A stretch of DNA of 64,000 nucleotides from Promethearchaeota archaeon (GTDB lineage Archaea; Asgardarchaeota; Thorarchaeia; Thorarchaeales; Thorarchaeaceae). Below are positions 25,915 to 55,390 of this stretch, piece after piece (the first letter of the stretch is position 1; every line of letters begins with the position of its first letter). A program made the position numbers and the translations under genes. The stretch lies in contig WJIL01000132.1 in assembly GCA_014730275.1 (NCBI GenBank), positions 122,026 to 186,025 of the forward strand. The letters run 5' to 3'. The notes under the pieces were generated by a model that made no database searches, was not told where the DNA came from, and saw nothing but the letters and a program-made list of their open reading frames with translations.

Positions 25915-26505
25915 TTGTCCAAGACGGAACCTAATGGGACGATTGAAATGGGGTACTCCTTAGTGTCAAGTTCAGCCAAGGATTTCCACTACGTACGGAA
26001 AGTTGTGATGATTGGAGCTGGAGGTAGCGGAAAAACCGCTTTAGTCAACCGCTTTCTAACGAACCGATTTACCGACCAATATATAGTTACAATCGGAAGC
26101 CAATTTGCGGTCAAAGTTGTACCAGTAAATGACTCAAATGGCAATGAGAGAAGAGTGAAACTACTCATATGGGATCTGGCTGGTCAGAAGCGATTTGATT
26201 TTATCAGGCACAGTTACTATAGGGGAGCAAAAGGAGCGTTGCTCGTATTCGATACTACTCGGCAAAGTACGTTTCGAGTACTTGACAACTGGATTGCAGA
26301 AACCAAGAAAGCTTTGAACACCTCTATTCCTATTATTGTCTTAGCCAACAAAATTGACCTGGAGGATCAACGAGTTGTTGGAACTCATGAAGGCCGTGAG
26401 TATGTTGCTGAAAAAGGACTGGCTGGATATCTTGAGACTAGTGCCCTCTCCGGAGAGAATGTTGAGAGAGCTTTCGAAATGCTTGCTGAAAATGTGATAC
26501 CTTGA
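25915..26505 (+). CDS. Ras-superfamily small GTPase, Rab-like
   Basis: G1 GAGGSGKT, switch TIGSQF, G3 WDLAGQKRF, G4 LANKIDL, G5 ETSAL. Confidence 0.8.
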   Translation: MSKTEPNGTIEMGYSLVSSSAKDFHYVRKVVMIGAGGSGKTALVNRFLTNRFTDQYIVTIGSQFAVKVVPVNDSNGNERRVKLLIWDLAGQKRFDFIRHSYYRGAKGALLVFDTTRQSTFRVLDNWIAETKKALNTSIPIIVLANKIDLEDQRVVGTHEGREYVAEKGLAGYLETSALSGENVERAFEMLAENVIP

Positions 26506-26605
26506 TTACTTGCTCATCTGAACTGTGATTCTCTGTTTGGTGCTGCCGATAAGCATAATTATCGTGAGTTTGTGCGTCATATTACACGAAGGATGAAGCT
26601 GAACA

Positions 26606-27730
26606 ATGGACTTGGATATAGACTTTCTAGAGAAGCTTTGTAATGCTTTTGGACCTAGCGGATTTGAACAAGAAGCCCAACGGATTGCTAGGGATTATGG
26701 TCAAGAATTTGCGGACGAGGTCATGTATGACAGGATGGGATCTGTCATTTTCAAACGCGGGAATTCTGGACCCAAAATCATGCTTGCCGGACATGTAGAT
26801 GAGATAGGATTCGTTGTTACCGAGATAAAGAAGAACGGGTTCTTGAAATTCCATAGCTTAGGTGGTTGGTGGGACCAGACTCTCCTCACTCAAGAGGTTG
26901 TCATCAAACCGTCTGAAGGTGATGAAAAGATCATCGGTGTTATTGGGGCACCTCCACCGCATGTACTTGACGCCGAGACGCGAAAGAAGCCAGTTAAACT
27001 AAAGGACATGTATATGGATATTGGCTGCAGTTCCAAGGAGGAAGTGGAAGAATTAGGAGTTAGAGTAGGTGATCCCGCTGTCCCTCATGCAAGGTTTCGC
27101 ACAATGGAACGAACCAGGAAGGAGAAGGATGAGGATGGTGAGGAAGAAAGAACCCATGAAACTACCGTTGGGGTCGCTAAGGCTTTTGATGATCGGATTG
27201 GTGTTTTCATTGTACTGGAGGTCTTGCGTCGTCTTAGCACTAATGACCTAAGTCATCCTAATACCATCTATGCTGTATCAACCGCGCAGGAAGAAGTGGG
27301 TCTTCGGGGGGCTAGAACTGCTGCACAGATGATAAAGCCTGATTTAGGATTCGCCCTTGATGTTGACATTTCTGGTGATGTTCCTGGTGCAAAGGATCTT
27401 GTACAGAAAATGGGGAATGGTGTCTCTATTTCAGCAGGCGATGGTTCAATGATACCCAATCCTCGATTCAGGAAGTTTGTGTTAGACATCGCTGAGGAAA
27501 TTGGGGTTAAACATCAGCCAGCGTTTTTGAGAAGTGGCGGTACAGATGCCGGTATAATCCACATAACTGGAATGGGTGCACCTTCTCTGTTTATTGGTAT
27601 CCCGACCAGGCATATTCACTCACATCATGGTATGCTTGACTTCAATGATGTGGAAAATGCTGTCACGCTACTTGTTGAAGTTATTCAACGACTTGATGAA
27701 AAAACGGCGAAAAGCTTCACCGAGCTATAA
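26606..27730 (+). CDS. M42-family (TET/FrvX-like) aminopeptidase
   Basis: GHVDEIGFVVTEI and DDRIGVFIVLEVLRRL are M42 hallmarks. Confidence 0.85.
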   Translation: MDLDIDFLEKLCNAFGPSGFEQEAQRIARDYGQEFADEVMYDRMGSVIFKRGNSGPKIMLAGHVDEIGFVVTEIKKNGFLKFHSLGGWWDQTLLTQEVVIKPSEGDEKIIGVIGAPPPHVLDAETRKKPVKLKDMYMDIGCSSKEEVEELGVRVGDPAVPHARFRTMERTRKEKDEDGEEERTHETTVGVAKAFDDRIGVFIVLEVLRRLSTNDLSHPNTIYAVSTAQEEVGLRGARTAAQMIKPDLGFALDVDISGDVPGAKDLVQKMGNGVSISAGDGSMIPNPRFRKFVLDIAEEIGVKHQPAFLRSGGTDAGIIHITGMGAPSLFIGIPTRHIHSHHGMLDFNDVENAVTLLVEVIQRLDEKTAKSFTEL

Positions 27731-27771
27731 CTAGTGATAGAAAAAAATGGCTGGGGTACGATTTGCGTACC

Positions 27772-28921: not shown

Positions 28922-29743
28922 CTACGGCTTGTCATTATTATCAGGTTCGTAGTTGGAAAAGAGCATTTTACGTACCCCCTCCACGGTTTTCGGCCCTATT
29001 CCGTGAACTTCCTGCCATTCGTCCGTACGAGTAACGACTTCAAATGGGCTTCCAAATTCCTCTAACAGGCTTCTAGCTCTAACGGCATTGATATTGGGAA
29101 AGCCAGCCACAAAGAACTCTTGCTCATCGCTCATGGAATCGAGACCTTTTCGAGTTCTGATTACTGGTAGCCTAGTACTTTCCCTATCATCGTTTTCTTC
29201 ACCCTTAAGAATCCCAAAAAGAAGACCCGCTGAATGCAGTGCATTGAAACCCTCTAGAATCTCAATTCCGCGATCACGAATGCTATCAATTAACCCATCC
29301 AGTGAGTTTGGATGTATGAAACTAGCTCGTTCCATTGTAACATAATATCCATGTTTCTTCTTAGTTTTCTTCGAGGAAAACGGAACGTAAATACATCCTT
29401 TCAAAGGGTCACGACGAATGGCGAGTAAATTCTCGATGAGCAGATACGGTTGTTCATACTCGAGAAGGGCATCCATCTGTTTCTTTAGGCGCGGTACACC
29501 CGATTTACTTCCAGTTAGTGTATGAACAAGATCAGTCACGGTTTTGCGCTCTATGGCAATTCCTTCAGTACCCAGAACGTCACCAATGGGTATTTTCTCT
29601 ACCGTGTAGTTGATTTCCTCCTCTTCAAGCATTGAAATCAAGTGTTTCACAGAGTTCTGTCGCTTACTTTTGGTTTCATGAACGTCAATAACGACGTCCG
29701 GTACGTTCCCATAAATGTCAGATTGCATACTACTCTTCACCAA
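28922..29743 (-). CDS. ERCC4-type (XPF/Mus81-like) nuclease, short form with C-terminal (HhH)2
   Basis: IAIERKTVTDL matches the ERCC4 ERKxxxD catalytic motif. C-terminal GFPNINAVRARSLLEEFGS...VHGIGPKTVEGV is a paired helix-hairpin-helix. Confidence 0.65.
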   Translation of the reverse strand: MVKSSMQSDIYGNVPDVVIDVHETKSKRQNSVKHLISMLEEEEINYTVEKIPIGDVLGTEGIAIERKTVTDLVHTLTGSKSGVPRLKKQMDALLEYEQPYLLIENLLAIRRDPLKGCIYVPFSSKKTKKKHGYYVTMERASFIHPNSLDGLIDSIRDRGIEILEGFNALHSAGLLFGILKGEENDDRESTRLPVIRTRKGLDSMSDEQEFFVAGFPNINAVRARSLLEEFGSPFEVVTRTDEWQEVHGIGPKTVEGVRKMLFSNYEPDNNDKP

Positions 29744-32673: not shown

Positions 32674-33813
32674 ATGCCTGTCGCCATGCTGTTGATTGAT
32701 TGGGATAGCAAAATAGGAGCAGTTCTCAAGGCCAAGGTGCCGGAGGATTTTGCGGAATACTATCAAGAAGATCTTAACACTGAAGCCATGCGAATTTTCA
32801 CGTCTCACGCAATGGGAGAAGCTACAGCTGGATTCTCTACGCTGACAGTTCGTATTGGCGGAGAAGAATACAATGTCGCTTCGTATTATACGGGTATTGT
32901 TCGTGAGGAAGAACAATACTGTATCTCGCTGTTACTTGGCCCTTCGGAAGATCCAAAGGTATACGAGGCAGCAATCACTTCGGTAGTATCTCCGTTGATG
33001 AATGCAGTTGTTTCAATGACTGATGCGGAACTGCAAGAAGAGCTTGAGAACACCTACCGCCGGATTATTCGCCTCGCAGGAATGGCTGATGAGTCAAGAT
33101 TGGCTCGTCTTTTTGCTGACGAGGTCTCACGGGCTGTATTCCCCAAACTCTGGAAGGGCGGCATCTCAAAGGAAGACCTTGAAGAATGGCTCAAGATGGT
33201 AACAGGCCTCCCAAGTGTAAGTGTCGATTCAATCCTTGCCCCGTTTGAGGAGCTAGGAATAGCCAAAGTCGAATGGGTTGATGAGATTGGCAGAACCTGT
33301 GTTTTCATGATTAAAGACTTAGAAGTTTTCCGGGCACCACCTCTACTGGCTATGGAAACTGCGTCTGAAGTACTCGATCCCGAACTTGCAGCTGAATACA
33401 AGACTGAAGTGCTTGAGTTTCTCACGGAATGGCAAAAGACGCCTGAAGACACAGTCGCTATAGCCGAAATCCTGTCGGATCCTGACTGTTATGACATATT
33501 GAGCATTCTACGGCAGCGACCGGTGAACATTCCGGAGCTTGAAGCAACCTTGGGAATCCCACCGAAGGAACTACGTCAAGCCATACAGACCCTGAAGAAG
33601 TACAGAGTCGTGTCCGAAAAGCGCCGCAAGGAACCGTCTGGAGAATATGATCGTTGGTTATTCCTACTCAACGATATCCGTGTACGACTATTCTTCCCAG
33701 AATATTTCCTGCAGACTCTAGTACAGGAATTGGAAAAAGATCCAGATGATACCCGGCAAATGGAACTTGTAGAGCAGCATTTGCGGCTACTCAGGGACAA
33801 TTTCCCCCGGTAA
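32674..33813 (+). CDS. hypothetical protein; N-terminal longin/roadblock-like pattern, C-terminal winged helix
   Basis: N-terminus LLIDWDSKIGAVLKAKVPEDF...NVASYYTGIVREEEQYCISLLLG has longin-like beta-alpha patterning. C-terminus PVNIPELEATLGIPPKELRQAIQTLKKYRVV. Confidence 0.35.
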   Translation: MPVAMLLIDWDSKIGAVLKAKVPEDFAEYYQEDLNTEAMRIFTSHAMGEATAGFSTLTVRIGGEEYNVASYYTGIVREEEQYCISLLLGPSEDPKVYEAAITSVVSPLMNAVVSMTDAELQEELENTYRRIIRLAGMADESRLARLFADEVSRAVFPKLWKGGISKEDLEEWLKMVTGLPSVSVDSILAPFEELGIAKVEWVDEIGRTCVFMIKDLEVFRAPPLLAMETASEVLDPELAAEYKTEVLEFLTEWQKTPEDTVAIAEILSDPDCYDILSILRQRPVNIPELEATLGIPPKELRQAIQTLKKYRVVSEKRRKEPSGEYDRWLFLLNDIRVRLFFPEYFLQTLVQELEKDPDDTRQMELVEQHLRLLRDNFPR

Positions 33814-34089: not shown

Positions 34090-35004
34090 CTATTTATCGA
34101 TTTCAAAATAAATGCGTCTGTATTTCTCTTCATATTTGAATTTCTTCTTATAGAAGTTGATTGCAGGATCATTATTCACCTCAACAAAGAGGTTTGATTT
34201 CGACATCCCTTGTTTCTTGGCTTCGTGTAAAACCTTGGTAAGCAACACCGTTCCGTAGCCTTGGTTATGATACCCTTCAAGAAGTCCTATTCCAAAAATG
34301 AAAAAATTGTTTGGATTTGTTTCCCAGCCTGCACAATATCCAATAGGCTCGCCATTCTGGTATGTAAGAAGACCAATGAAGCCAGATTTCTGCTGGAATG
34401 CGTATAGTGTATCTCTAGACATTGGCTCGTAGGTCGGGGAATCTGCGAATATCGAATCCTGCAACTTCTTCCAGAGGTCTAAATGGTTTTCAGATTTCAT
34501 TTCGGTAATCTGTATTCTTGTGTCTTCTTTGTTCTCAAGAAGATCATCAGAGATTTCAGTTTCCATTCTTATTTTCGTGTCCACTCTCTCGAATCCTTTT
34601 TCCTTTGCCAGAGATATGATATATGGGCGATAGCTGGAAACTATTGTTTTGATTTTTGCATACTCTCGAGACATTGCTTCTTTCAGTATTTCATCAAAAA
34701 GTCTGGAGCCGATTCCTACGGCTCTACGACTAGGTCGCACATTGACCGAGATACCGATGGCCGATGCATCCATTTGATATATTCGAGCCATTCCGTCGAG
34801 ATGACCTTCAGGATTCCATGCAAGAACAAGATCTTTTTCTAAATCGAGAGGCGCGTACAGCTTTTCAAAGAATGCTGCATCTTTAGGTTGAAAGTCAGGG
34901 TTGTCATGCCCTTCGACTGCATTATAGAGATTTGCCATCTCTTCAGCGATTAGATTAAGGGATTTGTCTACGGGCCTTTGAATCATAAATCCGTCAGCAA
35001 CCAT
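34090..35004 (-). CDS. tandem GNAT N-acetyltransferase
   Basis: Two acetyl-CoA binding blocks (RRAVGIGSRLF; HNQGYGTVLLT). Confidence 0.8.
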   Translation of the reverse strand: MVADGFMIQRPVDKSLNLIAEEMANLYNAVEGHDNPDFQPKDAAFFEKLYAPLDLEKDLVLAWNPEGHLDGMARIYQMDASAIGISVNVRPSRRAVGIGSRLFDEILKEAMSREYAKIKTIVSSYRPYIISLAKEKGFERVDTKIRMETEISDDLLENKEDTRIQITEMKSENHLDLWKKLQDSIFADSPTYEPMSRDTLYAFQQKSGFIGLLTYQNGEPIGYCAGWETNPNNFFIFGIGLLEGYHNQGYGTVLLTKVLHEAKKQGMSKSNLFVEVNNDPAINFYKKKFKYEEKYRRIYFEIDK

Positions 35005-41721: not shown

Positions 41722-42588
41722 ATGGTGAGCCTCATGAGCGAAGAAGAAATGGACTTCGACCCGGTACAACTGATGGAACGGGCGAGAGCGGCTAAAGATG
41801 CCGGAGAAGAAGAAATGGCTGCTCGTGCTTTCAATACTGCCGGTAACTACTACATGAGTATTGGCGAATTTGATGAGGCTCTCAAAAGCTTCGGAGAGGC
41901 TCTCGAACTATTCAAGAGTTTAGGAGATACAGAAGGTCGAGGCGATGCCTTGTACAATCTTGGCGTAGCTCAGATGAACAATGAAGAACTGGAAGAAGCC
42001 GAGCAGACCCTCCAGTCTGCGATTGATATGTTCGAACAGGCTTCAGATGACAGCGGAACTGCAGATGCAATGTATGCACTTGCACTCACGAAGCTCGGGC
42101 TTGATGAGTTTGATGAAGCTATTAGCCTATTTAGACGAGCCAAGCGAATATACAAAGACTTGGACAATATGCAGGGTATGGCAAGCATACGCATGGATAT
42201 TGGCAACGCTCAGGCAGAACAAGAGGAATGGGACAAAGCCGAGCGAGAGTTCAAGAAAGCTCTGAAGATTTACGAGGACATCGATGACAAAGCTGGCATT
42301 GGTGATGCCCTGTCGTTGTTAGGCGATATTTCCGAGCTGCAAAATGATCAGAAGAAGGCAGCCGAGTACTTCGCAGAAGCTGCAGAGAACTACTTCGACG
42401 CAGAGTTATTCGAGATTACTCGAGAAGTCATCGAGCGGGCCGAGAGCAAGTATTGGGATATTCCAAAAGCCACTCGTCGTCGACTTAGAAAGATAACTGA
42501 TGCAATCTATGATCAGCTTCCTGAGGAAGAGGAAGATGACGATGAGGATTACGATGATGACGATTTTGGTGATATTCCCGGCATCTAA
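41722..42588 (+). CDS. TPR-repeat protein with poly-D/E C-terminal tail
   Basis: Repeating A...Y..G...A/L 34-mer units. Tail EEEDDDEDYDDDD. Confidence 0.7.
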   Translation: MVSLMSEEEMDFDPVQLMERARAAKDAGEEEMAARAFNTAGNYYMSIGEFDEALKSFGEALELFKSLGDTEGRGDALYNLGVAQMNNEELEEAEQTLQSAIDMFEQASDDSGTADAMYALALTKLGLDEFDEAISLFRRAKRIYKDLDNMQGMASIRMDIGNAQAEQEEWDKAEREFKKALKIYEDIDDKAGIGDALSLLGDISELQNDQKKAAEYFAEAAENYFDAELFEITREVIERAESKYWDIPKATRRRLRKITDAIYDQLPEEEEDDDEDYDDDDFGDIPGI

Positions 42589-45600: not shown

Positions 45601-46552
45601 CATGTGGTTGCTCAATCTACGCCGAGCTGTTCTGATAGAGCCTGCTTCTTTGTCGTTATTCAATGATTGGATGACCCAGTATGCTCAAGACTTCCAGGAA
45701 TATGTACAAGATGGCGGTTCACTAATCATCATGGGCATAAATACAAATGCAACTTGGCTACCGTGGACTTTCTCATTTTCTGATGGTTTTGCTAGCTCGC
45801 AGTTCTCCATCACTGAGGAACAGCATCCCCTGATAACCACACCTAACTCTATTGACGAGAACATCACCTGCCTAGGTGCTTTTACGAGCTACGGATCGAA
45901 TTTTACTCCACTTGCTGGTGTAGATGGTGCCCCTATCCTCCTTGCTGGCATATCCGGGTTCGGGAAAGTGGCTCTTACGACATTAGATCCTACTGGAAAC
46001 TCCAAAGATGCATTCATCGAAAATTCTGCGCTGTGGTATCGCGAACCGTCGTTGATGCTAACAGAAATAGCCCTATCTCAGGAAATCATTTGGGGCGGTG
46101 ACCGGGTCGACATCTCAATTTCTATTACTGATAGGAAAGGTAACCCTATTTCAGATGCTGATATTCAAGCTAGGATTGATTCTACCACCGTAGATGTAGG
46201 ACATGTAGGAGATGGACTTTACGAAATAACGCTAGGTGAAGAATGGACTCGTAATAGAACCGGCTACTATGATTTAGTCTTGACCGCTCGGAAACTTGGT
46301 TATGATACTCTTAGCCTTCATTTCGACGACTACCTCTACATTCGTCCTTCCCCTTGGCTACCAATCACCATTGTTGGAATCGCTGTTCTTGTGATATTGG
46401 CTGTTTGGTCTTACCGGAAACGTCGAAAGGGAGAAAAAATTGTTGATTTCGGTGGGAGTACCTATTCTCCGCCAAAAAATCATAAAACTAAGAAAGAAAA
46501 GGAAGAAGAGGACGAGGAATTTGACCCCAAGGAGTTCTTTGGGGTTGAGTAA
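42692..46552 (+). CDS. giant cell-surface protein (1286 aa) with signal peptide, C-terminal TM anchor and possible clan-CD cysteine peptidase domain
   Basis: N-terminal hydrophobic leader. C-terminal LPITIVGIAVLVILAVW then KRRKGEK and an acidic cytoplasmic tail. Internal LWAFSTHGT ... IVFLTACLLGG resembles the His/Cys dyad context of caspase-like (C11/C25) peptidases. Confidence 0.55.
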   Translation: MLEDRRIPRLLDRQKAPHSLIAMILLLGTLFLPSAFSPQTLPVRESRNPVQFKMANGQEQNYTAMRRSVFVSPDSTSYIDEFSYMAAVPTSVFSHDGTKYVSPVVLSSSSDSEDWFIDDWKEYLSVDGGLEQLVTIGDFSIQESMAFRESFGTEVFPHIEGDSSAEVAAQLAISDWASSDTVVIGMANDDLSTLNTTSGNSIHSLDGSSPASYNTSTTVQPSSGASIPFTPPTNAGWLYGSFDWSGTNYFTHKLIDPNGNTVDYSLARQTRYQRNPSFVDELVPLHFWLPKTLEGEYTMQVEIGSPISAPVSMDCDITYYPGFSQEINVPENAKWLNLTANWDNAGTNINLALIDPSGKMVQWAPAGSLLSGAGRDSIEVPYPSPGSWKAVGAWMDPNGETNNVELSWQIQRMETNPDSYFESSANAAVLASLMNAPLLYTGERTVPTVTLDAANRLGAEVVILVDPHNIHSTEVESQLETTGILSVLDNYPMVTDWIKTLSGQNDVIATVPQVSSNEFYPAAALSGAFHGAPIFSLCGDDNQVTTMAESTWAPYKIGPEIEIYVTSRYSTRTENGWYDDRIPNMYTMRKSVDTFESFLDTRGAYNSSAGQSTVLLSPIDLIKPSFDRSLQTHFSPGRIPARNAELASVMISKAILHRFLFRTAESSDDTLLSLYAYTDGASYFDNFGNVRNIYQIEDTRDPLQDMGFNTLMHVGVNEVFNSLDTQVSLWAFSTHGTLTRYPADPPARPNGVGYFSFRDVDSPYGFEESVSNRESSEDADQLVNPVAFTAENAHHVIRTTNDLSGAVDNIGSPIVFLTACLLGGSQLPIQLMEHGAVGVMGSPRTVYFRAAGLLSTLVIESLANGTATGEALTSALDTVSMDYSDPLGYEPVDYANQYILFGDPEINLYEPDSTPRITSSDPTSNTYGTHTPARGVASIAALGSTDYLPSSLETADIGYDFYSDSNSSDFMWLLNLRRAVLIEPASLSLFNDWMTQYAQDFQEYVQDGGSLIIMGINTNATWLPWTFSFSDGFASSQFSITEEQHPLITTPNSIDENITCLGAFTSYGSNFTPLAGVDGAPILLAGISGFGKVALTTLDPTGNSKDAFIENSALWYREPSLMLTEIALSQEIIWGGDRVDISISITDRKGNPISDADIQARIDSTTVDVGHVGDGLYEITLGEEWTRNRTGYYDLVLTARKLGYDTLSLHFDDYLYIRPSPWLPITIVGIAVLVILAVWSYRKRRKGEKIVDFGGSTYSPPKNHKTKKEKEEEDEEFDPKEFFGVE

Positions 46553-46648: not shown

Positions 46649-47011
46649 TTGTCAAGCCGCGTTGATAGAATCAATAACGCCATAAAGGATTTCGAGACTA
46701 CGCCAGGAATTCAAGGAGCTGCCCTTGTATCACTTGATGGTCTCATGATATCAGCTGCACTTCCCGAGAGTGAACAGGAACGAGTTGCGGCGATAAGTGC
46801 TGCCATGCTTTCCCTAGGTGAAAAAGCCACACGGGAACTAGATCGTGGAAATCTGATGGAGATTTATGTGAAAGGTGACAAAGGTTACACTTTGATGACG
46901 TCAGTGGGCGATAGTGCTCTATTACTTGTTCTAGCTAAGGCTGATGCCCAACTTGGACTCATCTTTGTAGATATGCAACGAATGGCTGAAAGCCTTGCTG
47001 ACGTGCTGTAG
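46649..47011 (+). CDS. roadblock/LC7 (MglB-like) domain protein, stand-alone
   Basis: IQGAALVSLDGLMISAALPESEQERVAAISAAMLSLG...GDSALLLVLAKADAQLGLIFVDM is a canonical roadblock. TTG start. Confidence 0.8.
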   Translation: MSSRVDRINNAIKDFETTPGIQGAALVSLDGLMISAALPESEQERVAAISAAMLSLGEKATRELDRGNLMEIYVKGDKGYTLMTSVGDSALLLVLAKADAQLGLIFVDMQRMAESLADVL

Positions 47012-47053: not shown

Positions 47054-48292
47054 CTACTCAAGCCTTTTGATTACTTCATCAATGATGATTCGAGCGATGT
47101 CTCTTTTGCTCTTCTTGGGGGTTTTCTGAGTAAAACCGTTTTCTCCAACCAGCATGACTTGATTCGTGTCTGTTCCAAAGGCAACACCTTTCTTAGCGGC
47201 ATCATTTGCAACCATGAGATTGCAGGTGCCAGCCTTAATCTTCTCCCGGGCGCTTTCTTCTAGTTTTTCCTCCTCAAGACCAACCTCAACCTTGAATCCC
47301 ACAATGAATAGATTGCTATGTGCCTTCCGGACCTCCTCAATTATCTTTGGAGTAGCAACAAGTTTGACTTCCCGTTGCTTCTTTTCGGATTTTAGTTTCC
47401 CCTCCGTCTTATGTTTAGGTTGATAATCTAAAACAGCAGCAGCAGAGATGAACACATCCGTGTCTTCAGATGAAAGCGATTCCATAACTTCGTCCAGCAT
47501 TTCCTCGGGTGTCTCAACTGATACTACGTTAGCAAGCGACGGCGTTGGTTCATCCGTGGGTCCGATAATCAAATCAACTTCTGCTCCTCGTGAGCACACT
47601 TCTTCTGCCAAAGCAATTCCCATTTTCCCTGTTGAGGGATTTGTGAGAAAACGGACACTATCAATCCAAGCTCTTGTGGGACCGGCAGTTATGACAAACT
47701 TGCGGTCGCCAATATCATTTGGAGTGGCCAGTTGAATTGCATGCTCTAGTATCGTTCTAGTGGTGGGGATTTTTGCCTTGCCCTCTTCGATTCTTGGCGA
47801 TAACACCCTAATTCCCATTTTCCTCAGTGTTCCTATGTTCTCTACTACAGCTGGATGATCATACATCGACTGATGCATTGCGGGAATTATTAATGTCGGT
47901 ATGCTTGCTCCAATTGCAGAAGAAACAGTTGTGGTTACTGGTGTATCGTCAATACCGTTGGCTACCTTGCCGATGGTGTTTGCAGTAGACGGAGAGATGA
48001 TTACCAAGTCTACCTTATCTGGGTGCTTGCCTGCTAGCGTGACATGTTCTATTTGTCCTGTCAGATGGGCAACTACCTCGTTGCCGGTAGCCCACTCCAG
48101 CAAATATGGGTGAACAATTTCTCTGGATGCATCGGTCATGACACAGTAGACGTCTGCTCCATGACGCATTAGTAGTCGAGCTAGAGAAGTAGTCGTAACT
48201 GCTGCAACACTACCTGTTACACAGAGAGCTATTTTCTTACCTGCAAGGGCATTGCTATAGCTACCTGTAATCATTTTGGAAGTGTGTTTCAT
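47054..48292 (-). CDS. coaBC: bifunctional phosphopantothenoylcysteine decarboxylase / phosphopantothenate-cysteine ligase
   Basis: N-terminal flavoprotein GKKIALCVTGSVAAV, CTP-binding ITAGPTRAWIDSVRFLTNPSTGKMG. The start is placed at the internal Met. Confidence 0.85.
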   Translation of the reverse strand: MKHTSKMITGSYSNALAGKKIALCVTGSVAAVTTTSLARLLMRHGADVYCVMTDASREIVHPYLLEWATGNEVVAHLTGQIEHVTLAGKHPDKVDLVIISPSTANTIGKVANGIDDTPVTTTVSSAIGASIPTLIIPAMHQSMYDHPAVVENIGTLRKMGIRVLSPRIEEGKAKIPTTRTILEHAIQLATPNDIGDRKFVITAGPTRAWIDSVRFLTNPSTGKMGIALAEEVCSRGAEVDLIIGPTDEPTPSLANVVSVETPEEMLDEVMESLSSEDTDVFISAAAVLDYQPKHKTEGKLKSEKKQREVKLVATPKIIEEVRKAHSNLFIVGFKVEVGLEEEKLEESAREKIKAGTCNLMVANDAAKKGVAFGTDTNQVMLVGENGFTQKTPKKSKRDIARIIIDEVIKRLE

Positions 48293-48587
48293 GGTCAGCA
48301 ACCGTGTACTTCCATGAATTACATACTGATAAACTGAGCGACACATCCGAGTGACAAAGATGAATCACGTTAGAATTAGAAAGCGGGGCTATCACCCATT
48401 CATTCTCCCAAGGAAGATATATGGAGAGGATTGTCTTATATTTCATGCAAATACATTTGACTAGAAATCAGTGAGGATTTGATTGAATTGGGGGATTGCG
48501 GCAGAGAGCACAATGTGTCCTAGTTCGTCTAATTGACTTCTTACTGGTGGGTGCTGACCACGTGCTGACTTGCTTTCCTACTAAGGG

Positions 48588-48720
48588 GGGACAGGCTTAG
48601 TGACTGAACAAATGGACAAGGAAACCCGCTACAAAGCATTCGCCCAAGCGGTATCAGACTTGGGTCATTCAACTCAGTCTCTTTTCATAACTCAGTCTCT
48701 TTTCATACTGCTGATTAGAC
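48588..48720 (+). pseudogene. decayed tandem duplicate of the 5' UTR and first ~25 codons of the gene at 48951
   Basis: KETRYKAFAQAVSDLGHSTQSLF versus KRARYQAYEKTVSAFGSPSQSLF (~50% identity). The upstream nucleotides are also similar (GGTGGGTGCTGACCACGTGCTGACTTGC vs GGCTGGTAGGTGCTAAAGACTTGCTGGACTCGC). The copy ends in an 18-nt direct repeat ACTCAGTCTCTTTTCATA x2 and then stops. Confidence 0.4.
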
Positions 48721-48950
48721 TGGGAGGTGAAGCTTGCCCCTCCCAAGGCAAAGAATATATGAGGCGGACTGAATCACCACGTTATCGCTGGTGCAAGATA
48801 TATCTGATTTAGAGTTGCCTGTGAGTGAATCGCACAAATCGATTGATTGCAGCAGCAATATTGCAATGTTGCTTGCCCGATGTGATGTGTGGCTGGTAGG
48901 TGCTAAAGACTTGCTGGACTCGCTTTTGATATTCCGGAGGTGTACTCTCA

Positions 48951-49751
48951 TTGGCTGAACCACCAGAGAAGAGAGCTCGCTATCAGGCATATGAGAAGAC
49001 AGTTTCGGCTTTTGGCAGTCCTAGTCAGAGTCTCTTTGTAGTTGACGATGACGATGAAGTTGATACTTTTCAGCGTGATTTCAACAAATGGCTTGTCTCA
49101 CAAGATATGATGGACGAGAACGGAGAAGAGCCCTATCATTTGGTGAGAATCGGTTATGATGGCGATATGCTAGATGATATGTTCAGACTCACAGTATCTG
49201 ATGAGGCTGGCCATTTTGAGCCAGCTGATCTAGATCCCAGTATGCTCTACTCTAAGCAATCCATTTTTCAGCATCTCTATCAGACTATTACTCAGGACAA
49301 GTTTCTAGTCTTTCACATCACTGAGTTTCCGTTAGCGTACTATTTCGAGACTACCGTGGTAGTTGATGTGGACGATTTATCTGATGTGATCGATCCCGAC
49401 GTCCATGATGAGACCATCTCTCGATATTTGGATGACCTCCGTAGACGAGGTAGTGATGAGCATCGGCGAATTTACAGTTTCTTCTATCGTATAAGCACCA
49501 GTCTTCTCATGGAATTGTCAAATGTCTTCCTTGTTGTTCCTACGACGAATATGCATAACCATCTTGTTGTAAGTAGCTGGCGCACCCAAACTCTACTTCT
49601 CGGTTTTAGTCCACTAACATGGTCTTCTGGCAGCTTCGATGTGTATGACTTGAGTGGCCGGGATATAGATGCGAGATGGGCTTACCCTGCAGAACCTTCT
49701 GATGACCCACGTGTCAAGAAGTACACCAGCTTGGTTCCGTTTGAAAGCTGA
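48951..49751 (+). CDS. hypothetical acidic protein embedded in the CoA-biosynthesis cluster
   Basis: 266 aa. No motif recognised. Sits between coaBC and the pantoate kinase. Confidence 0.45.
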   Translation: MAEPPEKRARYQAYEKTVSAFGSPSQSLFVVDDDDEVDTFQRDFNKWLVSQDMMDENGEEPYHLVRIGYDGDMLDDMFRLTVSDEAGHFEPADLDPSMLYSKQSIFQHLYQTITQDKFLVFHITEFPLAYYFETTVVVDVDDLSDVIDPDVHDETISRYLDDLRRRGSDEHRRIYSFFYRISTSLLMELSNVFLVVPTTNMHNHLVVSSWRTQTLLLGFSPLTWSSGSFDVYDLSGRDIDARWAYPAEPSDDPRVKKYTSLVPFES

Positions 49752-49822
49752 TGGATATATACATTATATACAGATACCATAATTGTATGGTCATTTATAT
49801 AACGGTATACTCGTACGATGCA

Positions 49823-50758
49823 ATGAAAGCGAAATTGACACAAGGACAATCGAACCCAAACATGGCCTCAGCTTTTGTTCCTGGGCATGTAACGGGGTTC
49901 TTTACCATACACGACGATGCTAGTGATCCGCTCCAGTGTGGTTCTTTAGGTGCTGGATTCTCTGTGGAATCTGGGACTCTCACTACCGTATCCATTCTGA
50001 AGTCAACGGATTCGCGTGTGCGTGTCAAATACAATGGAAATACAATCAATGGAATCGTTTCGAAGGAAGTGGTAATGTCTATGCTGGCGGATAAAGGTGG
50101 CAAATATAGAGTCAATGTGACTCATCAATCGCCTTTAGCAGTTGGTGCTGGCTTTGGAGCTTCAGGCGCTGGTGCTTTGGGTACAGCCATGGCTCTCCAG
50201 AAAATCCTTTTCGGATCTGAAGAACGGATTTCGGCAGCGAGATACGCTCATATGGCAGAAGTCCGAAATCACACTGGTCTTGGAGATGTAATCGCCCAGA
50301 CAGTCGGTGGCTTCGAAATCAGAACCAGACCGGGTGCTCCCGGTATTGGTCAGACTGCTTCTATCGGATATCCTGAAGATATACATGTTCTTCTTGCAGG
50401 ATCTCCCGGTCTTGAAACAGAGAAGATACTTACTGACTCAACGCATCGAAAGAGAATCAATGCAATAGGACAGCGCCTAGTGGAGGAAATAATGTCTAAT
50501 CCCACAGTGGATGTGTTTGTGTCTTGCTCAGAACGGTTCTCTGATGCTATTGGTCTTGCAACTTCTCGTGTGAAGTCTGCCTTATCAGACCTAAAGGCAC
50601 AGGGCTTTACTTGGAGCGGCATGGTCATGCTTGGAGATTCTGTATTCTGTCTCTGTAAAGGAAACTGGAAAACGGCCAGACATATTCTCCGCCAATATTG
50701 GAAGAAGGAGGAGATAGTCGTCACTTCAATTTCAGCAGAAGGAGGAAATCTACAATGA
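49823..50758 (+). CDS. pantoate kinase (GHMP-kinase family, archaeal CoA pathway)
   Basis: GHMP motif PLAVGAGFGASGAGALGTAMAL. Immediately upstream of the phosphopantothenate synthetase with an ATGA overlap. The start is reset from the AT-rich, low-complexity beginning of the ORF to MKAKL. Confidence 0.6.
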   Translation: MKAKLTQGQSNPNMASAFVPGHVTGFFTIHDDASDPLQCGSLGAGFSVESGTLTTVSILKSTDSRVRVKYNGNTINGIVSKEVVMSMLADKGGKYRVNVTHQSPLAVGAGFGASGAGALGTAMALQKILFGSEERISAARYAHMAEVRNHTGLGDVIAQTVGGFEIRTRPGAPGIGQTASIGYPEDIHVLLAGSPGLETEKILTDSTHRKRINAIGQRLVEEIMSNPTVDVFVSCSERFSDAIGLATSRVKSALSDLKAQGFTWSGMVMLGDSVFCLCKGNWKTARHILRQYWKKEEIVVTSISAEGGNLQ

Positions 50759-51567
50759 ACACAGACAAGGTAGTGCCAGATGACCATCCCAGGAAAGAAT
50801 CGCTTGATATCAGAGAACGGATTATTGAAGGTCATGATGATAACATTGTGGCAACTGCCGGACTGTTAGCGCATGGTCGTGGAGAGGCTTTCGACTATCT
50901 AATTGGCGAAAGAACCACTCCTTCAGCTAGACAAGCGGCAAAAGCTGCGGTTGCAGCTCTTCACCTAGCGGAGAAGCCTGTCATAAGTGTGAATGGAAAT
51001 GTGTGTGCGCTGGTACCTGTGGAGCTTGTTGAACTCTCCGAAATCACAGGCGCGCCTCTTGAAATCAACCTGTTTTACTACCGGAGAGAACGAGAAGAAG
51101 CTATGTTGAAGATGTTGAAAAAGGCAGGTGCACAGCAAGTACTGGGAACACATGACCGCCCCTCTGAGAAGATTCCTGAATTAAGTAGCAATCGCCGAAA
51201 AGTTGATTCTGAGGGCATTGCTGTTGCGGATACCGTCCTTGTTCCACTTGAGGATGGTGACCGGACCGAAGCGCTTAGAAGGCTTGGAAAGCGCGTTATT
51301 ACGATAGACCTGAATCCCATGAGTAGGACTGCCATTAACTCCAACATCACTGTTGTTGATAATATCATCCGGGCGATGCCTGTCATGGTTGATTTGGCTA
51401 GAGATCTCAAGTCCTATACAAGTGAAAAGCTTACAAAAGCCCTTGATAGCTTTGATAACAAGAAGAACTTGAGAATCGCGATTCAAGACATAATGAATCA
51501 TCTTAGGGAAATGGCGGACGCCGGGATTATGAAAGACGTTACTGCTGAAAAGGAGGCCTCGACATGA
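50755..51567 (+). CDS. 4-phosphopantoate--beta-alanine ligase (phosphopantothenate synthetase, archaeal)
   Basis: LAHGRGEAFDYLIGERTT and VISVNGNVCALVP resemble COG1701. Gene order matches the archaeal pantoate-kinase/synthetase pair. Confidence 0.65.
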   Translation: MNTDKVVPDDHPRKESLDIRERIIEGHDDNIVATAGLLAHGRGEAFDYLIGERTTPSARQAAKAAVAALHLAEKPVISVNGNVCALVPVELVELSEITGAPLEINLFYYRREREEAMLKMLKKAGAQQVLGTHDRPSEKIPELSSNRRKVDSEGIAVADTVLVPLEDGDRTEALRRLGKRVITIDLNPMSRTAINSNITVVDNIIRAMPVMVDLARDLKSYTSEKLTKALDSFDNKKNLRIAIQDIMNHLREMADAGIMKDVTAEKEAST

Positions 51568-52565
51568 AGAAGACCGTCGATGTTGTAATTATGGGATCGG
51601 GAGCGCTTGGCTCTCTCTATGGCGGTCTTATCCAGCTTACAAACCGAGCCTCAGTTACCCTTGTTGCTCGCCCTAGGCATGTTAATGCAATCAAAGAGCG
51701 CGGTCTTCAAATACGGGGCGTGCTTGGGGAGTATTCCATTGACATAGAGGCAGTACCCGACCCAAAGGAGATTCAACATGCAGACTTGGTTTTCATAACC
51801 ACGAAGTCGTACGATACTAGGAAAGCAGCCCGAGAATTGAAACACCTTGTTAGTGAAGATACATACTTTGTCTGTCTCCAGAACGGAATTGGAACTGAAG
51901 AACTGGTTTCGCGGGAATTGAACACTAAGAACGTGTTACGCGCTACTTCTTGTATGGGCGCCATGACTACTGGAAATGGTGAAGTAAAGGTTACGGGCAC
52001 TGGCATTACCGAAGTTGGTACGCACTACGAAGAAAACTCTGAAGTGGTGGATTACGTAGTCAATCTGCTTCAGGATGCCTCTTTCGAAGCTTCTGGTTCT
52101 GAAGATATAGAGGCTGTTGTCTGGACGAAGACAATCGTCAATTGCGGAATCAATCCTGTTGGTGCGCTAACTGGACTAACTAATGGCGAAGTGTACAAGG
52201 ACAGAGACCTCCGGGCACTGGTAGTCAATTTGGTTGAAGAAGCGGCCGAAGTAGCAGAGGCGCTCGATATCAATCTCAATACTGATGATCCTGTAAGGTA
52301 TACCCTTGGTACAGCTAAAGCGACTTCCGAAAACATCAACTCGATGCTACAGGACATAGTGAAGGGGAAACGTACCGAAATCGACTTCATCACTGGTGAA
52401 ATCGTTCGAAAAGCAGAGAAATTGGGGCTTGAAGCCCCCTTCAGCAAGAGCATGCTAGCCTTAGTTCGGGCGCTAGAAAGAAAGCGGCAAGCAAATGGGG
52501 ATGGCAAGGAGAGTCTCCCGATGCTTCATTCCGAACAGCTCGTGGATCTTGCTTCACGAAACTAG
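51564..52565 (+). CDS. panE: 2-dehydropantoate 2-reductase (ketopantoate reductase)
   Basis: N-terminal VIMGSGALGSLYGG Rossmann motif. LQNG and the conserved Lys/Glu region of the ApbA family. Confidence 0.75.
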   Translation: MKKTVDVVIMGSGALGSLYGGLIQLTNRASVTLVARPRHVNAIKERGLQIRGVLGEYSIDIEAVPDPKEIQHADLVFITTKSYDTRKAARELKHLVSEDTYFVCLQNGIGTEELVSRELNTKNVLRATSCMGAMTTGNGEVKVTGTGITEVGTHYEENSEVVDYVVNLLQDASFEASGSEDIEAVVWTKTIVNCGINPVGALTGLTNGEVYKDRDLRALVVNLVEEAAEVAEALDINLNTDDPVRYTLGTAKATSENINSMLQDIVKGKRTEIDFITGEIVRKAEKLGLEAPFSKSMLALVRALERKRQANGDGKESLPMLHSEQLVDLASRN

Positions 52566-53242
52566 AATCCAAATGTGCGTTTAGCCATACGGTATGATTG
52601 TTCAGCTGCATTGTTGGCATTATGAGTAACAGCTTGCATATGACCTGGCAAGGCAACTTCGAATTTCATTTCACTGAGTTTCTTAAGTGACTTCACTAGC
52701 TTCTTAGGGTCTCCAGTAGGAAAGTCAACTCGACCAAAACTACCTCCGGCGAACATTGTATCTCCAGTAATCATGATGCTTTCACCTAGGACTTCCAGGC
52801 AAACGCATCCGGAGGAATGCCCTGGCGTATGATGTACCTTGAGACTGATATTGCCGAGATCAATTATGTCTTTGTCATCGAATAGTCCGTCTACCTTGAA
52901 CTGCGGAAGGGTCACGCCAAAGGTATCACTTAGTGTTAATTCCATGTTTCCGGAGTTGATTCGGTTTCCTTCGGAGCGATGCAAGTGGATTTGGGGACTA
53001 TTTTCCGAAAGAAACGGAACAACACCTCCAATATGATCAATATGACTGTGGGTGAGAATAATATCCGTGATATCCTGCTGGGATGAACCAATTTTTTCAA
53101 GGTCTTTCACCAGACCCTCATGATACATCCCAGTACCAGTATCAACCAAGGCTTGTCGTTCGTTCCCACCTATCCAGATAATATTGCTATCAAACGAGCT
53201 GCTTCTCCGAAATTTGATGCTATTTGTTATTTCTTCAAACAT
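52562..53242 (-). CDS. MBL-fold metallo-hydrolase (glyoxalase II-like)
   Basis: THSHIDHIGG, HTPGHSSG. Confidence 0.8.
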   Translation of the reverse strand: MFEEITNSIKFRRSSSFDSNIIWIGGNERQALVDTGTGMYHEGLVKDLEKIGSSQQDITDIILTHSHIDHIGGVVPFLSENSPQIHLHRSEGNRINSGNMELTLSDTFGVTLPQFKVDGLFDDKDIIDLGNISLKVHHTPGHSSGCVCLEVLGESIMITGDTMFAGGSFGRVDFPTGDPKKLVKSLKKLSEMKFEVALPGHMQAVTHNANNAAEQSYRMAKRTFGF

Positions 53243-54374
53243 GGTTTCTCACAACATACTCCATTAGCGTATCGATGTCTTTTTCGTTATTATAGAAATG
53301 AGGCGAGACTCTGAGCCGACCATTTCTGACCGAACAGTATATCCGGTGCTTATTCAGTTTCTCATTCAGGACTTCTGGTTCTTCCGGTGTGCATGACACA
53401 ATTGCTGATTTGTTTTCTTTCCTGAAATCGTAATAATCGATTCCCTCCTCGGTGAGCCTTTTCCTAAGATAGTCTGCACAATTCATTGCAGCTTCTTCTC
53501 GAGTCTCTGCTTCAATTTCCAACAAGACATCAAGAGACTCTCGGAATCCCACATATGCCATCATTGCAGAAGAGCCACCTTGAAACCGACGTGCGTCGGG
53601 CAGGAGTTTTCGGCTATGATAACTGAAATCTACCAAATCTTTGACTCCCCACCACCCCGTTGTGATAGGATGTACATCATCCACTGCGGACTCAGAAGCA
53701 TAGACATATCCAGCTCCGATTGGTCCTATGAGCCATTTAGCACTCTGTCCCGCGGCAAAATCAACACCTGACTCTGCAAGATTAAAATCAACACAACCTG
53801 CTGCTTGGATTACATCGACTACTAGATATCCCCCAACATCATGAACGAGTTTTGCAAGTGCCTTCAAATCTGACTTGTAACCTGTGCCAAACTGAATGAG
53901 GCTAACCGCTAGGACTTTCGTGTTTTCGTCTACTGCTTCTGCTAAACGCTCTGGCGGAATTGCTCCTTCAACAGATTCAACTACGCGCAGTTCTGCACCA
54001 TGTGCATGTTCTACATTTTGCCATGGGATGTAATTGGCGGGGAACTCCAAGTCACATACGACCACATTTGATTGGTCTGGATAGTCAATACTGTGTGCTA
54101 TGGCGTTCAATCCTGCGCTGGTACTTGGGACGAGCCCGTAGTTGTTTCGGTCCCCTCCAAGCATTTCTGCAAGTTTGTTCCGGATATCCTTGAATAGTGC
54201 CAATGTGTCCTCAAAATCCCTACACACCGCTGCCCTATCCTCCAAATAGTCACGAACTGCAGCGGCCATTCTGGCTGGAGGGATGCCTGTGGAGGCGTTG
54301 TTAAGATACGTCATATTCTTGAGTGTAGGGAATTCTTTACTGACGAAGTCTGGATCAATTGCATCTGGCATCAT
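53235..54374 (-). CDS. class-V aminotransferase (cysteine desulfurase/SufS-like)
   Basis: PLP fold-type I. VVDVIQAAG, SAKWLIGPIGAGYVY (the PLP-binding Lys region). Confidence 0.75.
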   Translation of the reverse strand: MMPDAIDPDFVSKEFPTLKNMTYLNNASTGIPPARMAAAVRDYLEDRAAVCRDFEDTLALFKDIRNKLAEMLGGDRNNYGLVPSTSAGLNAIAHSIDYPDQSNVVVCDLEFPANYIPWQNVEHAHGAELRVVESVEGAIPPERLAEAVDENTKVLAVSLIQFGTGYKSDLKALAKLVHDVGGYLVVDVIQAAGCVDFNLAESGVDFAAGQSAKWLIGPIGAGYVYASESAVDDVHPITTGWWGVKDLVDFSYHSRKLLPDARRFQGGSSAMMAYVGFRESLDVLLEIEAETREEAAMNCADYLRKRLTEEGIDYYDFRKENKSAIVSCTPEEPEVLNEKLNKHRIYCSVRNGRLRVSPHFYNNEKDIDTLMEYVVRNHV

Positions 54375-54535
54375 TCTTCAAGAGGCGGAGAATCATACTT
54401 CTCTGATAAATTTGCGCACCTAAAGCTTAAGTTGAGGTGACCCACCTAAAGTTTAAGTCTAGCCGATTTACCTTATTGTCTGTACATCTACGGATGATGG
54501 AGTAAGCTGGCAAAGCTAGAGGAGGTTGCCAACAA

Positions 54536-55390
54536 TTGTCTCTGTTTCGGAGGATAGTGGACCGCCTTAAAAGAGCGGTAGGAAAAGAGAGCAAAACAGA
54601 GGACACTGTTGCGCGAAAAGACGAACATGAAGACCTTCCCTCGAAAGAGAAAGCTGCAAGCAGCTCGGAACGCCCCCTCTCAGCTATAGACCTTCCTGTT
54701 TCACCCACAGGAACAGTTTCTGCACAGACGTCGACAATACCTCTAGATACGGAACGAACAGAGAGTCTTGCGAAAGAGGCCAAAATCAAACCTCGTACCC
54801 CTGAAGAGATTGTTCCAGGCAAGCTGTTGAAGAGAGATGAAGAGGGGAGAATCCATATCAAAATCGTATTCTACGGCCCATCCCTTTCTGGTAAAACAAC
54901 TGCGTTGAGATGGCTTTTTGCAAACATCCCATCGTTGAGCCAACGCAAGATGGTCGAAATCAGTGATGAATTGGGTAGAACAACATTCTTTGATTTTCTA
55001 CCCGTAGCTGCACGCGGGAGCAATATTGTATTTGATGTATTCACAGTAGCGGGTCAGCGAAGACATGCTCGAAGCCGAATCAGTGTCCTAAAGGATGCTG
55101 ATGGAATAATTTTCATGGCAGATTCTAGACCAGAGTCTATGAACGAGAATCTTGCTTCCATTGAGGAATTGCGAATTGCACTAGGAACTGACCGGGTGGC
55201 AACGATGCCAATCATTGTCTCCCTCAACAAACGTGATCTTCCCAATGCTCTACCCCCTGATTATATGATACAGATGCTTGATTTGGAGGGCTTTCCGGTC
55301 TTTGAGACCATAGCCACAGAAGGCAAGAATCTCGTGCGTATGTTCCAGCGGGTATTGCGTGATGCACTTGTATTCAAAATCGGTATGTAG
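54536..55390 (+). CDS. MglA-like small GTPase with ~100-aa N-terminal low-complexity extension
   Basis: KIVFYGPSLSGKTTALRWL (cf. MglA KIVYYGPGLSGKTT), TVAGQ, ADGIIFMADS, LNKRDL. Confidence 0.7.
   Translation: MSLFRRIVDRLKRAVGKESKTEDTVARKDEHEDLPSKEKAASSSERPLSAIDLPVSPTGTVSAQTSTIPLDTERTESLAKEAKIKPRTPEEIVPGKLLKRDEEGRIHIKIVFYGPSLSGKTTALRWLFANIPSLSQRKMVEISDELGRTTFFDFLPVAARGSNIVFDVFTVAGQRRHARSRISVLKDADGIIFMADSRPESMNENLASIEELRIALGTDRVATMPIIVSLNKRDLPNALPPDYMIQMLDLEGFPVFETIATEGKNLVRMFQRVLRDALVFKIGM

Follow-up and report, generated by a model that had tools for sequence, protein, structure and literature searches.

We analysed a stretch of 64,000 nucleotides (the window) from contig WJIL01000132.1 of the Promethearchaeota archaeon assembly GCA_014730275.1, which an initial annotation had singled out for its genes encoding small GTPases and roadblock, longin and TRAPP/V4R proteins. 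These genes were found to form a few separate modules of two to four genes, most of them of a kind described before, in an ordinary conserved block, not one island. The window is probably a collinear segment of the core genome that carries several independent small-GTPase switch modules, rather than one integrated system. Domain content, paralogy, and gene adjacency and its conservation were observed directly. Genes are named here by their lowest position in the window.

The window (GC ~45%) originates from Thorarchaeia within the Asgard archaea. All close relatives of its proteins in homologue searches belonged to Thorarchaeota, and 80 Thorarchaeota species loci were syntenic with it; the Asgard origin given by the initial annotation was therefore correct and could be stated more exactly. 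We compiled a non-overlapping set of open reading frames (ORFs) and scanned essentially all of them against Pfam. GTPase, roadblock, longin and TRAPP/V4R families account for 11 of the ~66 genes. The profile searches that the initial annotation had called for supported its GTPase and TRAPP/V4R assignments and that of the roadblock protein 46649. It is well established that small GTPases dock on dimers of roadblock or longin domains (MglB, Ragulator, NPRL2/3, TRAPP longins). By inference from this, the roadblock and longin proteins of the window would act as scaffold, GTPase-activating protein (GAP) or guanine nucleotide exchange factor (GEF) in independent GTPase switches. The modules may form physical complexes, have GAP or GEF activity and play a role at membranes.

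The whole region was collinear in another Thorarchaeota genome, GCA_021498125.1, with orthologues 64-84% identical. The shared order begins with GlnA, eL13, PfkB, two roadblock/TRAPPC3 cassettes, lysyl-tRNA synthetase (LysRS), eS26 and HDAC, continues with a Rab-like gene, an M42 peptidase, ERCC4, 32674, an ArfL gene and RtcB, and ends with an MglA-like gene, a TPR gene and a gene for a 1292-aa protein; collinearity also takes in genes of coenzyme A (CoA) synthesis. Interspersed housekeeping genes show the same degree of synteny as those related to GTPases, so the conservation of the block is no evidence for a trafficking island. The co-location of the loci is explained by general synteny across Thorarchaeota.

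The gene density was modestly above expectation. A curated survey counted 2,922 genes of the Ras superfamily over 62 Asgard genomes (~47 per genome), and MK-D1 has 74 small GTPases; complete Thorarchaeota chromosomes measure 2.6-3.2 Mb. The Asgard-wide survey mean and the Thorarchaeota chromosome size together give an expectation of ~1 GTPase per 64 kb, against four seen. The Poisson probability of at least four is 0.016-0.031 per window, equivalent to 0.7-1.4 such windows per genome by chance. This excess is small, given that the window was picked for that very property. Counting all eleven genes of the eukaryotic signature protein (ESP) type exaggerates their independence, because they fall into ~5 loci. 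In three Thorarchaeota genomes, 20 kb at a second ArfL locus contained 0-1 further GTPase, roadblock, longin or TRAPP-type genes. The window is thus on the rich side for GTPase-related genes, modestly above expectation. The gene content given by the initial annotation is confirmed, and the unusual density that it claimed finds weak support.

The four GTPases named in the initial annotation (25915, 35149, 40980 and 54536) all scored above the Pfam Ras/Arf/Roc thresholds. A protein was assigned to the Ras superfamily if it had the motifs G1 (GxxxxGK[ST]), G3 (DxxG, or TxxG of the MglA type) and G4 (NKxD) and passed the Pfam threshold. The G motifs could be read in all four, and the Ras/Arf thresholds were passed by all. 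Assignment to MglA was based on a G3 motif in which Thr replaces Asp (group 1, TVPGQ; groups 2-5, GTPGQ) together with greatest similarity to a characterised MglA; 40980 and 54536, described before as MglA/Arf-like, could thereby be placed in the MglA2-5 and MglA1 classes. The four proteins represent four different classes (RasL, ArfL, MglA2-5 and MglA1) of the Asgard classification of Vargova et al.

Of all gene pairs in the window, 32674 and 35149 are best supported as functional partners, because their adjacency outlasted the split of two Asgard classes. Gene 32674 (32674-33813, + strand) encodes a 379-aa protein with a putative longin domain and two winged-helix (WH) modules, as judged from homologue searches and an AlphaFold model (predicted template modelling score 0.73). 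Gene 35149 (35149-36963, + strand) encodes a probable longin-type N-terminal domain, an ArfL-class GTPase domain (Pfam Arf 2e-21, residues 122-253) and an acidic tail of ~310 aa; the protein is 32% identical over 290 aa to curated ArfL (E 2e-50). The 32674 family is 81-87% identical over nearly all Thorarchaeota species, with one divergent lineage at 66%, and homologues in Jordarchaeia are 30-33% identical. An ArfL gene lies on the same strand, at most 3 kb downstream of 32674, in 64 of the 65 Thorarchaeota species loci with enough downstream sequence. The double GNAT acetyltransferase gene between the two in the window (34090-35004, - strand; Pfam) is a lineage-specific insertion, because it separates the pair in just 10 of 64 loci. 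In Jordarchaeia the orthologous genes are 11 bp apart and both proteins are ~30% identical to those of the window; the Jordarchaeia ArfL aligns with 35149 over the longin and G domains (1e-42). Among the GTPase-related loci of the window, only this pair stays together in Jordarchaeia.

The initial annotation had taken the N-terminal domain of 35149 for a roadblock. It begins with a strand, not a helix, and is better described as longin-type, within the same superfamily. A profile of this domain searched against PDB sequences gave the AP-3 mu longin as the best relevant match (0.23, weak), and the Jordarchaeia orthologue weakly matched Clat_adaptor_s (0.0033, below threshold) and Fuz_longin_1 (0.05). 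Pfam at permissive thresholds found nothing significant in the isolated N-domains of 32674 and 35149. The earlier description of 32674 as longin-like agrees with the topology of its model, which has a beta-beta-alpha-beta-beta-beta-alpha-alpha longin arrangement, without the N-terminal helix, followed by two winged helices. Structural matches to 32674 obtained with Foldseek were all weak and comprised winged helix-turn-helix (wHTH) proteins of the ArsR/Phr type (E at least 1.5e-3), GATOR1 chains (E at least 1.6e-3) and AP sigma (E 0.02-0.05). The family profile searched against PDB sequences found ArsR-type wHTH proteins only (~0.01), and no NPRL2; the second WH resembled ArsR/SmtB/Phr at 0.011. 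The longin domains of 32674 and 35149 may pair as in NPRL2-NPRL3 or MglB dimers, and such pairing would set the 32674 regulator onto the ArfL GTPase. The tail of 35149 (residues ~290-604) has an isoelectric point (pI) of 4.05 and 106 Asp plus Glu residues, and is probably disordered. Orthologues range from ~300 to 604 aa in total, with widely varying tails, and a paralogous group of ~305 aa has no tail.

A second kind of module is a cassette present in two copies, in which a TRAPPC3 gene lies directly behind a gene of the roadblock-WH type. The first cassette consists of 4913 (4913-5794, + strand), encoding a roadblock, an acidic linker and two WH modules (Pfam HTH_47 1.5e-6 at the C-terminus; fold inferred from the 7801 model), and 5791 (5791-6312, + strand), encoding a TRAPPC3/Bet3-like protein (Pfam TRAPP 1.6e-9, 38.2 bits against a cut-off of 27). 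Its paralogous counterpart consists of 7801 (7801-8808, + strand), with a roadblock, a disordered acidic linker and two WH modules according to its AlphaFold model and Foldseek, and 8838 (8838-9314, + strand), the Thor-TRAPPC3 orthologue (Pfam TRAPP 1.5e-8, 35.0 bits against 27; PDB 7yh2/7yh3 3e-69). A search of PDB sequences with 5791 found Thor-TRAPPC3 7yh3 (6.5e-24) as well as TRAPPC3 of eukaryotes (5e-10). The second cassette runs on, with gaps of 29-61 nt, into a V4R-domain gene (9376-9927, + strand; Pfam V4R 1.4e-11, 44.8 bits against 31) and, 40 nt past it, a gene for a protein with two HTH domains (9968-10765, + strand; HVO_0163-N / MarR-like, Pfam), whose position is kept at locus L001 of a distant Thorarchaeota genome. 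All three V4R/TRAPP-like proteins counted in the initial annotation were thus recovered, 5791 and 8838 above the TRAPP threshold and 9376 above that of V4R. Both genes of the cassette are paralogous between the two copies (4913 and 7801, 31% identity, E 4e-55; 5791 and 8838, 21% identity, E 2e-23), so the two genes were duplicated together. Genes 4913 and 5791 share an ATGA in which stop and start codon overlap, and both cassettes are kept at L001, in a genome with a 64%-identical orthologue. An independent tie between the two folds is the longin-TRAPPC3 fusion protein described in Heimdall (Tran et al. 2024, PMC10933270).

The roadblock calls of the initial annotation stood by sequence for 46649 and by fold, but not by sequence statistics, for 4913 and 7801. 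Pfam roadblock models gave at best Robl_LC7 at 0.053-0.093 for these two proteins, not significant, isolated N-domains and permissive thresholds included, and their Pfam matches were confined to the C-terminal WH parts. The AlphaFold model of 7801 shows an alpha-beta-beta-alpha-beta-beta-beta-alpha N-domain (residues 1-102; predicted local distance difference test 83-89). Its best Foldseek matches were MK-D1 Roadblock3 (9jue), the Thor roadblock 7f8m, LAMTOR2 and MglB (E ~3e-6, target template modelling (TM) score 0.65-0.72). A roadblock fold for 7801 is thus supported by modelling; for 4913 it would follow from paralogy with 7801 only. Across Thorarchaeota, members of the 7801 family share 62-69% identity, a few closer relatives excepted, and the first 110 residues hardly vary. 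With ~5 full-length clusters among 1.84 billion representative proteins, the roadblock-WH family is tiny, and no relatives outside it were detectable in that search except via the wHTH. For one distant member (L169), a TRAPP neighbour was not found.

The roadblock domain of the cassettes may serve as a dimerisation and GTPase-docking platform, with the TRAPPC3/V4R protein as a possibly ligand-binding partner of the roadblock-WH protein. The GTPase partner would be encoded elsewhere than next to the cassettes. Ligand sensing is proposed because Thor-TRAPPC3, a homodimer, has a Zn site and internal cavities, for which ligand binding was also suggested by the authors of the structure (PMC10933270). 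Two convergent genes for polytopic membrane proteins with five hydrophobic segments each (6436-6954, + strand; 6951-7553, - strand) lie between the cassettes. Neither had Pfam matches, the second has a CxxC...CxxC motif near its C-terminus, and both occupy the same position in the distant Thorarchaeota genome (L001 8681-9800). The second cassette belongs to a co-directional array (7801-15935; gaps of 29-70 nt and one 8-nt gene overlap) that also contains the HTH regulator, an ABC ATPase and FtsX-type permease, class-I LysRS and a CDP-alcohol phosphatidyltransferase.

The third module is a co-directional row of four genes with intergenic gaps of 44-104 nt. Gene 40980 (40980-41678, + strand) encodes a GTPase of the MglA2-5 class with a C-terminal extension of ~70 aa, as judged from Pfam and from alignment with curated MglA2-5, to which it is 35% identical over its full length, extension included. 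Its G3 motif is FGTPG(L), with Leu for the Gln of GTPGQ, and its PDB matches were a mixture of Arf and MglA. A TPR-repeat protein follows 44 nt past the GTPase gene (41722-42588, + strand; Pfam TPR_12 9e-29). Next comes a 1286-aa type-I surface protein (42692-46552, + strand; weak Pfam Peptidase_C25 match, 4.5e-7; hydrophobic segments at residues 16-34 and 1217-1235), with a predicted layout of signal/anchor segment, large ectodomain, C-terminal transmembrane segment and 50-aa cytosolic tail. The row ends with 46649 (46649-47011, + strand), a canonical roadblock/LC7 protein and Thor-RB orthologue (Pfam Robl_LC7 6e-21; PDB 7f8m 6e-56). Gene 46649 is the third gene after 40980 and has the same orientation, a distance within the four-gene criterion for MglA-MglB coupling; in a published survey, 390 of 449 prokaryotic MglA genes were within four genes of an MglB gene. 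A Thorarchaeota MglA-MglB pair has been modelled by others. The module may represent a pair of the MglA-MglB type, for which the TPR protein would be a candidate effector. The order GTPase, TPR protein, large surface protein was the same at locus L005 of a distant Thorarchaeota genome, which ends before the roadblock position.

Two GTPases, Rab-like 25915 and MglA1-type 54536, would stand outside the modules. The Rab-like (RasL) protein 25915 (25915-26505, + strand; Pfam Ras 7e-48), so described already in the initial annotation, has Thor-Rab as its nearest solved relative (PDB 7ezb, 1.5e-46), followed by eukaryotic Rab14/25/4/11. A CopG-like ribbon-helix-helix gene (25557-25781, - strand) is divergent from it, and the layout is the same in the distant genome (L005 2397-3325). 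The MglA1-class protein 54536 (54536-55390, + strand) has a basic N-terminal extension of ~100 aa and a TVAGQ G3 motif; it matched Thermus MglA at 2e-37 and Myxococcus MglA at 7e-32, and is 40% identical to curated Asgard MglA1. No roadblock gene was present within four genes of it in the window.

A further association of V4R proteins with GTPases emerged from metagenome contigs, which we scanned with an MglA2-5 alignment to obtain 80 loci (L086-L165). One GTPase clade, linked at 70% identity or more, accounted for 72 of them, on contigs of 39-67% GC. The typical order was DUF4388(PATAN)-wHTH, MglA-like GTPase, alpha/beta hydrolase, V4R and hexapeptide-repeat protein, as in L142 (2130-5352) and L165 (911-2889). 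V4R was present in 13 of the 26 loci with enough flanking sequence, and the window proteins 5791 and 9376 matched V4R proteins of these GTPase loci. The 7801-family profile matched one roadblock protein (3e-4) and the wHTH of one DUF4388 protein (2.7e-3) in the same set, and iterative searching found only six roadblock genes across the loci; that of L142 is closely similar to a Thorarchaeota roadblock (2e-33). An association of PATAN with MglA/MglB is already known from published work, and no description of a V4R-MglA GTPase association was found in the literature searched. Like the window, this bacterial-type operon combines GTPase, wHTH, V4R and occasionally roadblock genes. It differs in having a PATAN domain where the window has a roadblock, and its GTPase is 36-42% identical to 40980. 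Being in essence a single type of operon, it counts as a lead and not as a demonstration.

Several known systems resemble parts of the window. Tran et al. (2024, PMC10933270) crystallised Thor Rab (7ezb), roadblock (7f8m) and TRAPPC3 (7yh2/7yh3) and studied them in isolation; 8838 and 46649 are direct orthologues of two of these proteins, 25915 is a close relative of the third and 5791 is a paralogue of Thor-TRAPPC3. The same study found that MK-D1 GTPase genes are generally outside operons with roadblock, longin or TRAPPC3 genes, whereas in the window each TRAPPC3 gene has a roadblock-WH gene as its partner and the roadblock gene 46649 shares an array with a GTPase of the MglA type. The eukaryotic TRAPP core is similar in that a Bet3/TRAPPC3-fold gene adjoins a gene of the longin/roadblock superfamily twice in the window. 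Here, however, the partner is a roadblock fused to winged helices and not a free longin of the sedlin/Bet5 type, and TRAPP is a multisubunit complex with Rab GEF activity, whereas the window shows gene adjacency. As in MglA-MglB systems, 54536 and 40980 have an MglA-type G3 (Thr for Asp) and 40980 is within four genes of a roadblock gene; 54536, in contrast, is an orphan. The combination of roadblock, wHTH and GTPase recalls CvnB/CvnC/CvnD of the actinobacterial conservon, and 5 of 16 members of the 7801 family weakly matched DUF742 (best 0.018). Unlike the conservon, the window has its roadblock and wHTH fused, TRAPPC3/V4R as a constant neighbour and no histidine-kinase-like CvnA. A recent study found roadblock proteins to be widespread in prokaryotes and not specifically eukaryote-like.

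Similarity to the NPRL2/NPRL3 pair of GATOR1, which acts as the GAP on RagA, lies in the N-terminal longin/roadblock-fold domain followed by winged helices in 7801 and 32674. The 7801 model aligned over its full length with 8adl_S (Npr2), 9h4q_T and the NPRL2-length chains of 9o5a, 9o5d and 9v0j (E 4e-6 to 3.5e-5), with a low global TM score (~0.2) through differing domain orientations. The contents of the structures were checked: 8adl_S is Npr2, and 9o5a, 9o5d and 9v0j contain NPRL2. As GATOR1 is to Rag, so is 32674 tied to a gene for an Arf/Rag-like GTPase, the matches to GATOR1 chains being weak. In contrast to GATOR1, 7801 and 4913 have a roadblock topology with an N-terminal helix rather than a longin one, no DEPDC5 was found, and the position of the NPRL2 Arg finger is not conserved. 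Rag GTPases carry a C-terminal roadblock domain, whereas 35149 carries an N-terminal domain of probable longin type. An 'NPRL2-like' family was already known in most Thorarchaeota metagenome-assembled genomes (Liu et al. 2020/2021). A likeness of the 32674 and NPRL2 N-termini seen by eye (a Gly and, eight residues on, VPEDF) had no statistical support and was not used.

If the whole 64-kb window were a single functionally integrated trafficking/GTPase supercluster whose loci are held together by selection, one could point to the 11 of ~66 genes in GTPase-related families, to four GTPases against about one expected, to an arrangement preserved across Thorarchaeota and to the near lack of such genes around the second ArfL locus. 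Such a supercluster is nevertheless very unlikely: the interleaved housekeeping genes are unrelated and equally syntenic, the GTPases belong to four classes with the modules on separate transcription units, and the nominal P value amounts to about one such window per genome by chance. Furthermore, Jordarchaeia keep only the 32674/35149 pair together, and most Asgard ESP genes lie outside conserved neighbourhoods (Tran et al. 2024, PMC10933270; Liu et al.). The functional linkage that the initial annotation read from the clustering is therefore not supported at the 64-kb scale, where the whole block is collinear, and is supported for three small modules. The opposite extreme, chance co-occurrence in a family-rich genome with adjacencies that are merely frozen synteny and no functional linkage at all, draws on the abundance of these families in Asgard genomes (~47 or more small GTPases each, besides numerous roadblock/longin genes) and on the strong collinearity of Thorarchaeota. 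We consider it highly improbable, since the 32674/35149 adjacency persists to Jordarchaeia at ~30% identity, the cassette was duplicated as a unit with overlapping stop and start codons, and coupling of MglA and MglB within four genes is a documented rule.

For the cassettes and 32674, the main rival is ligand-responsive transcription regulation: the cassettes, and perhaps 32674, would be small-molecule-sensing regulators in which V4R/TRAPPC3 binds a hydrophobic ligand and the WH modules bind DNA, with no GTPase involved. V4R is the phenol-sensing domain of PoxR, and the cavities and Zn site of Thor-TRAPPC3 fit the ligand binding proposed by its authors (PMC10933270). Amid an acidic proteome, the terminal WH modules of both 7801 and 32674 are basic (pI 8.7-8.9). 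The one in 32674 is similar to ArsR/SmtB/Phr (0.011), the 32674 protein as such carries a JGI annotation as ArsR family, and an HTH regulator and an ABC/FtsX exporter are co-directional after the cassette. Even so, we regard this explanation as unlikely, since serving as a platform for GTPases is the classic role of roadblock and longin domains, 32674 keeps company with a GTPase gene in two Asgard classes, bacterial V4R homologues occur within GTPase operons, and the full-length structural matches of 7801 are to NPRL2/Npr2, whose winged helices bind no DNA.

Several observations weigh against the interpretation as independent GTPase switch modules. No GTPase gene adjoins the roadblock-WH/TRAPPC3 cassettes, and the basic, ArsR-like second WH of 7801 and of 32674 makes DNA binding alone possible. 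Pfam NPR2/NPR3 gave no match on alignment members of the 7801 and 32674 families apart from a single HTH_NPRL3 match at 0.11. Profile comparison (hhalign) with human NPRL2 was not significant (E 0.22 for the 7801 family, 0.1 for the 32674 family), and hhalign of the three families against each other gave nothing significant. The strand 4-5 loop of 32674, the position of the NPRL2 Arg78 finger, has Arg77 in Thorarchaeota and not in Jordarchaeia; Arg60 is conserved between the two, but at another position than Arg78. The linkage of the third module leans mainly on analogy, because the nearest MglA2-5 locus outside Thorarchaeota (L088; one locus examined) has the GTPase without TPR or roadblock neighbours, and the conservation of this module may be Thorarchaeota synteny only. 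The bacterial V4R-GTPase operon, finally, represents essentially one GTPase clade.

On a bolder and rather doubtful reading of the conserved pairs, the roadblock-2xWH/TRAPPC3 and longin-2xWH/longin-ArfL pairs would be archaeal forerunners of TRAPP (Bet3 plus longin) and GATOR1-Rag (NPRL plus GTPase), respectively. The link of V4R/TRAPPC3 to GTPase/roadblock/wHTH modules would then be pre-eukaryotic and visible in the bacterial-type MglA-like operon. If true, this would give a concrete path from a ligand-binding V4R protein to a GTPase-regulator subunit. Ideas on the origin of eukaryotic membrane traffic from Asgard archaea give a central place to small GTPases and to the roadblock, longin and TRAPP proteins that regulate them, and a standing obstacle is that cognate GTPase-regulator pairs are not readable from Asgard genomes (Tran et al. 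2024, PMC10933270). Three testable pairings in Thorarchaeota can be proposed: 7801 with 8838 and 4913 with 5791; 32674 with 35149; and 40980 with 46649. Two of the three involve proteins with crystallised orthologues, and if the pairings hold they would be entry points for the biochemistry of archaeal TRAPP-like and GATOR-like regulation. Earlier publications (PMC10933270; Liu et al.; Vargova et al.) have described these families, how abundant they are in Asgard archaea and the structures of three close relatives of the window's proteins. The present analysis adds, modestly, a corrected domain map, three candidate Thorarchaeota pairings and the bacterial V4R-GTPase operon as a lead, and no new type of system.

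The remaining genes of the block include those for eL13, eS26, an ERCC4 nuclease and class-I LysRS, all four of which the initial annotation had listed and Pfam recovered. The short archaeal form of ribosomal protein eL13 (3505-3711, + strand; Ribosomal_L13e 5.7e-14) keeps its position in the distant Thorarchaeota genome (L001). The others are context genes: class-I LysRS (13498-15171, + strand; tRNA-synt_1f 2.5e-97), eS26 (17041-17337, - strand; Ribosomal_S26e 2.8e-19) and the ERCC4-domain nuclease (28922-29743, - strand; ERCC4 1.2e-10). A conserved protein of 275 aa (23336-24163, - strand; L005 202-1032) gave faint hints of PCI and TPR (E ~0.1). An archaeal-type CoA pathway cluster at 47054-52565 comprises CoaBC (47054-48346, - strand), a probable pantoate kinase of the GHMP family (49751-50758), phosphopantothenate synthetase (50698-51567) and ketopantoate reductase (51564-52565); its + strand genes are headed by an ORF of 266 aa (48951-49751, + strand) with no Pfam matches. 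The sole tRNA of the window is tRNA-Gln(CTG) at 56313-56388. Adjoining a truncated isoleucyl-tRNA synthetase gene at the window edge, 57544-59865 encodes a 773-aa protein of the EF-2/EF-G family with all five domains, which may be one of the EF-2 paralogues known from Asgard archaea.

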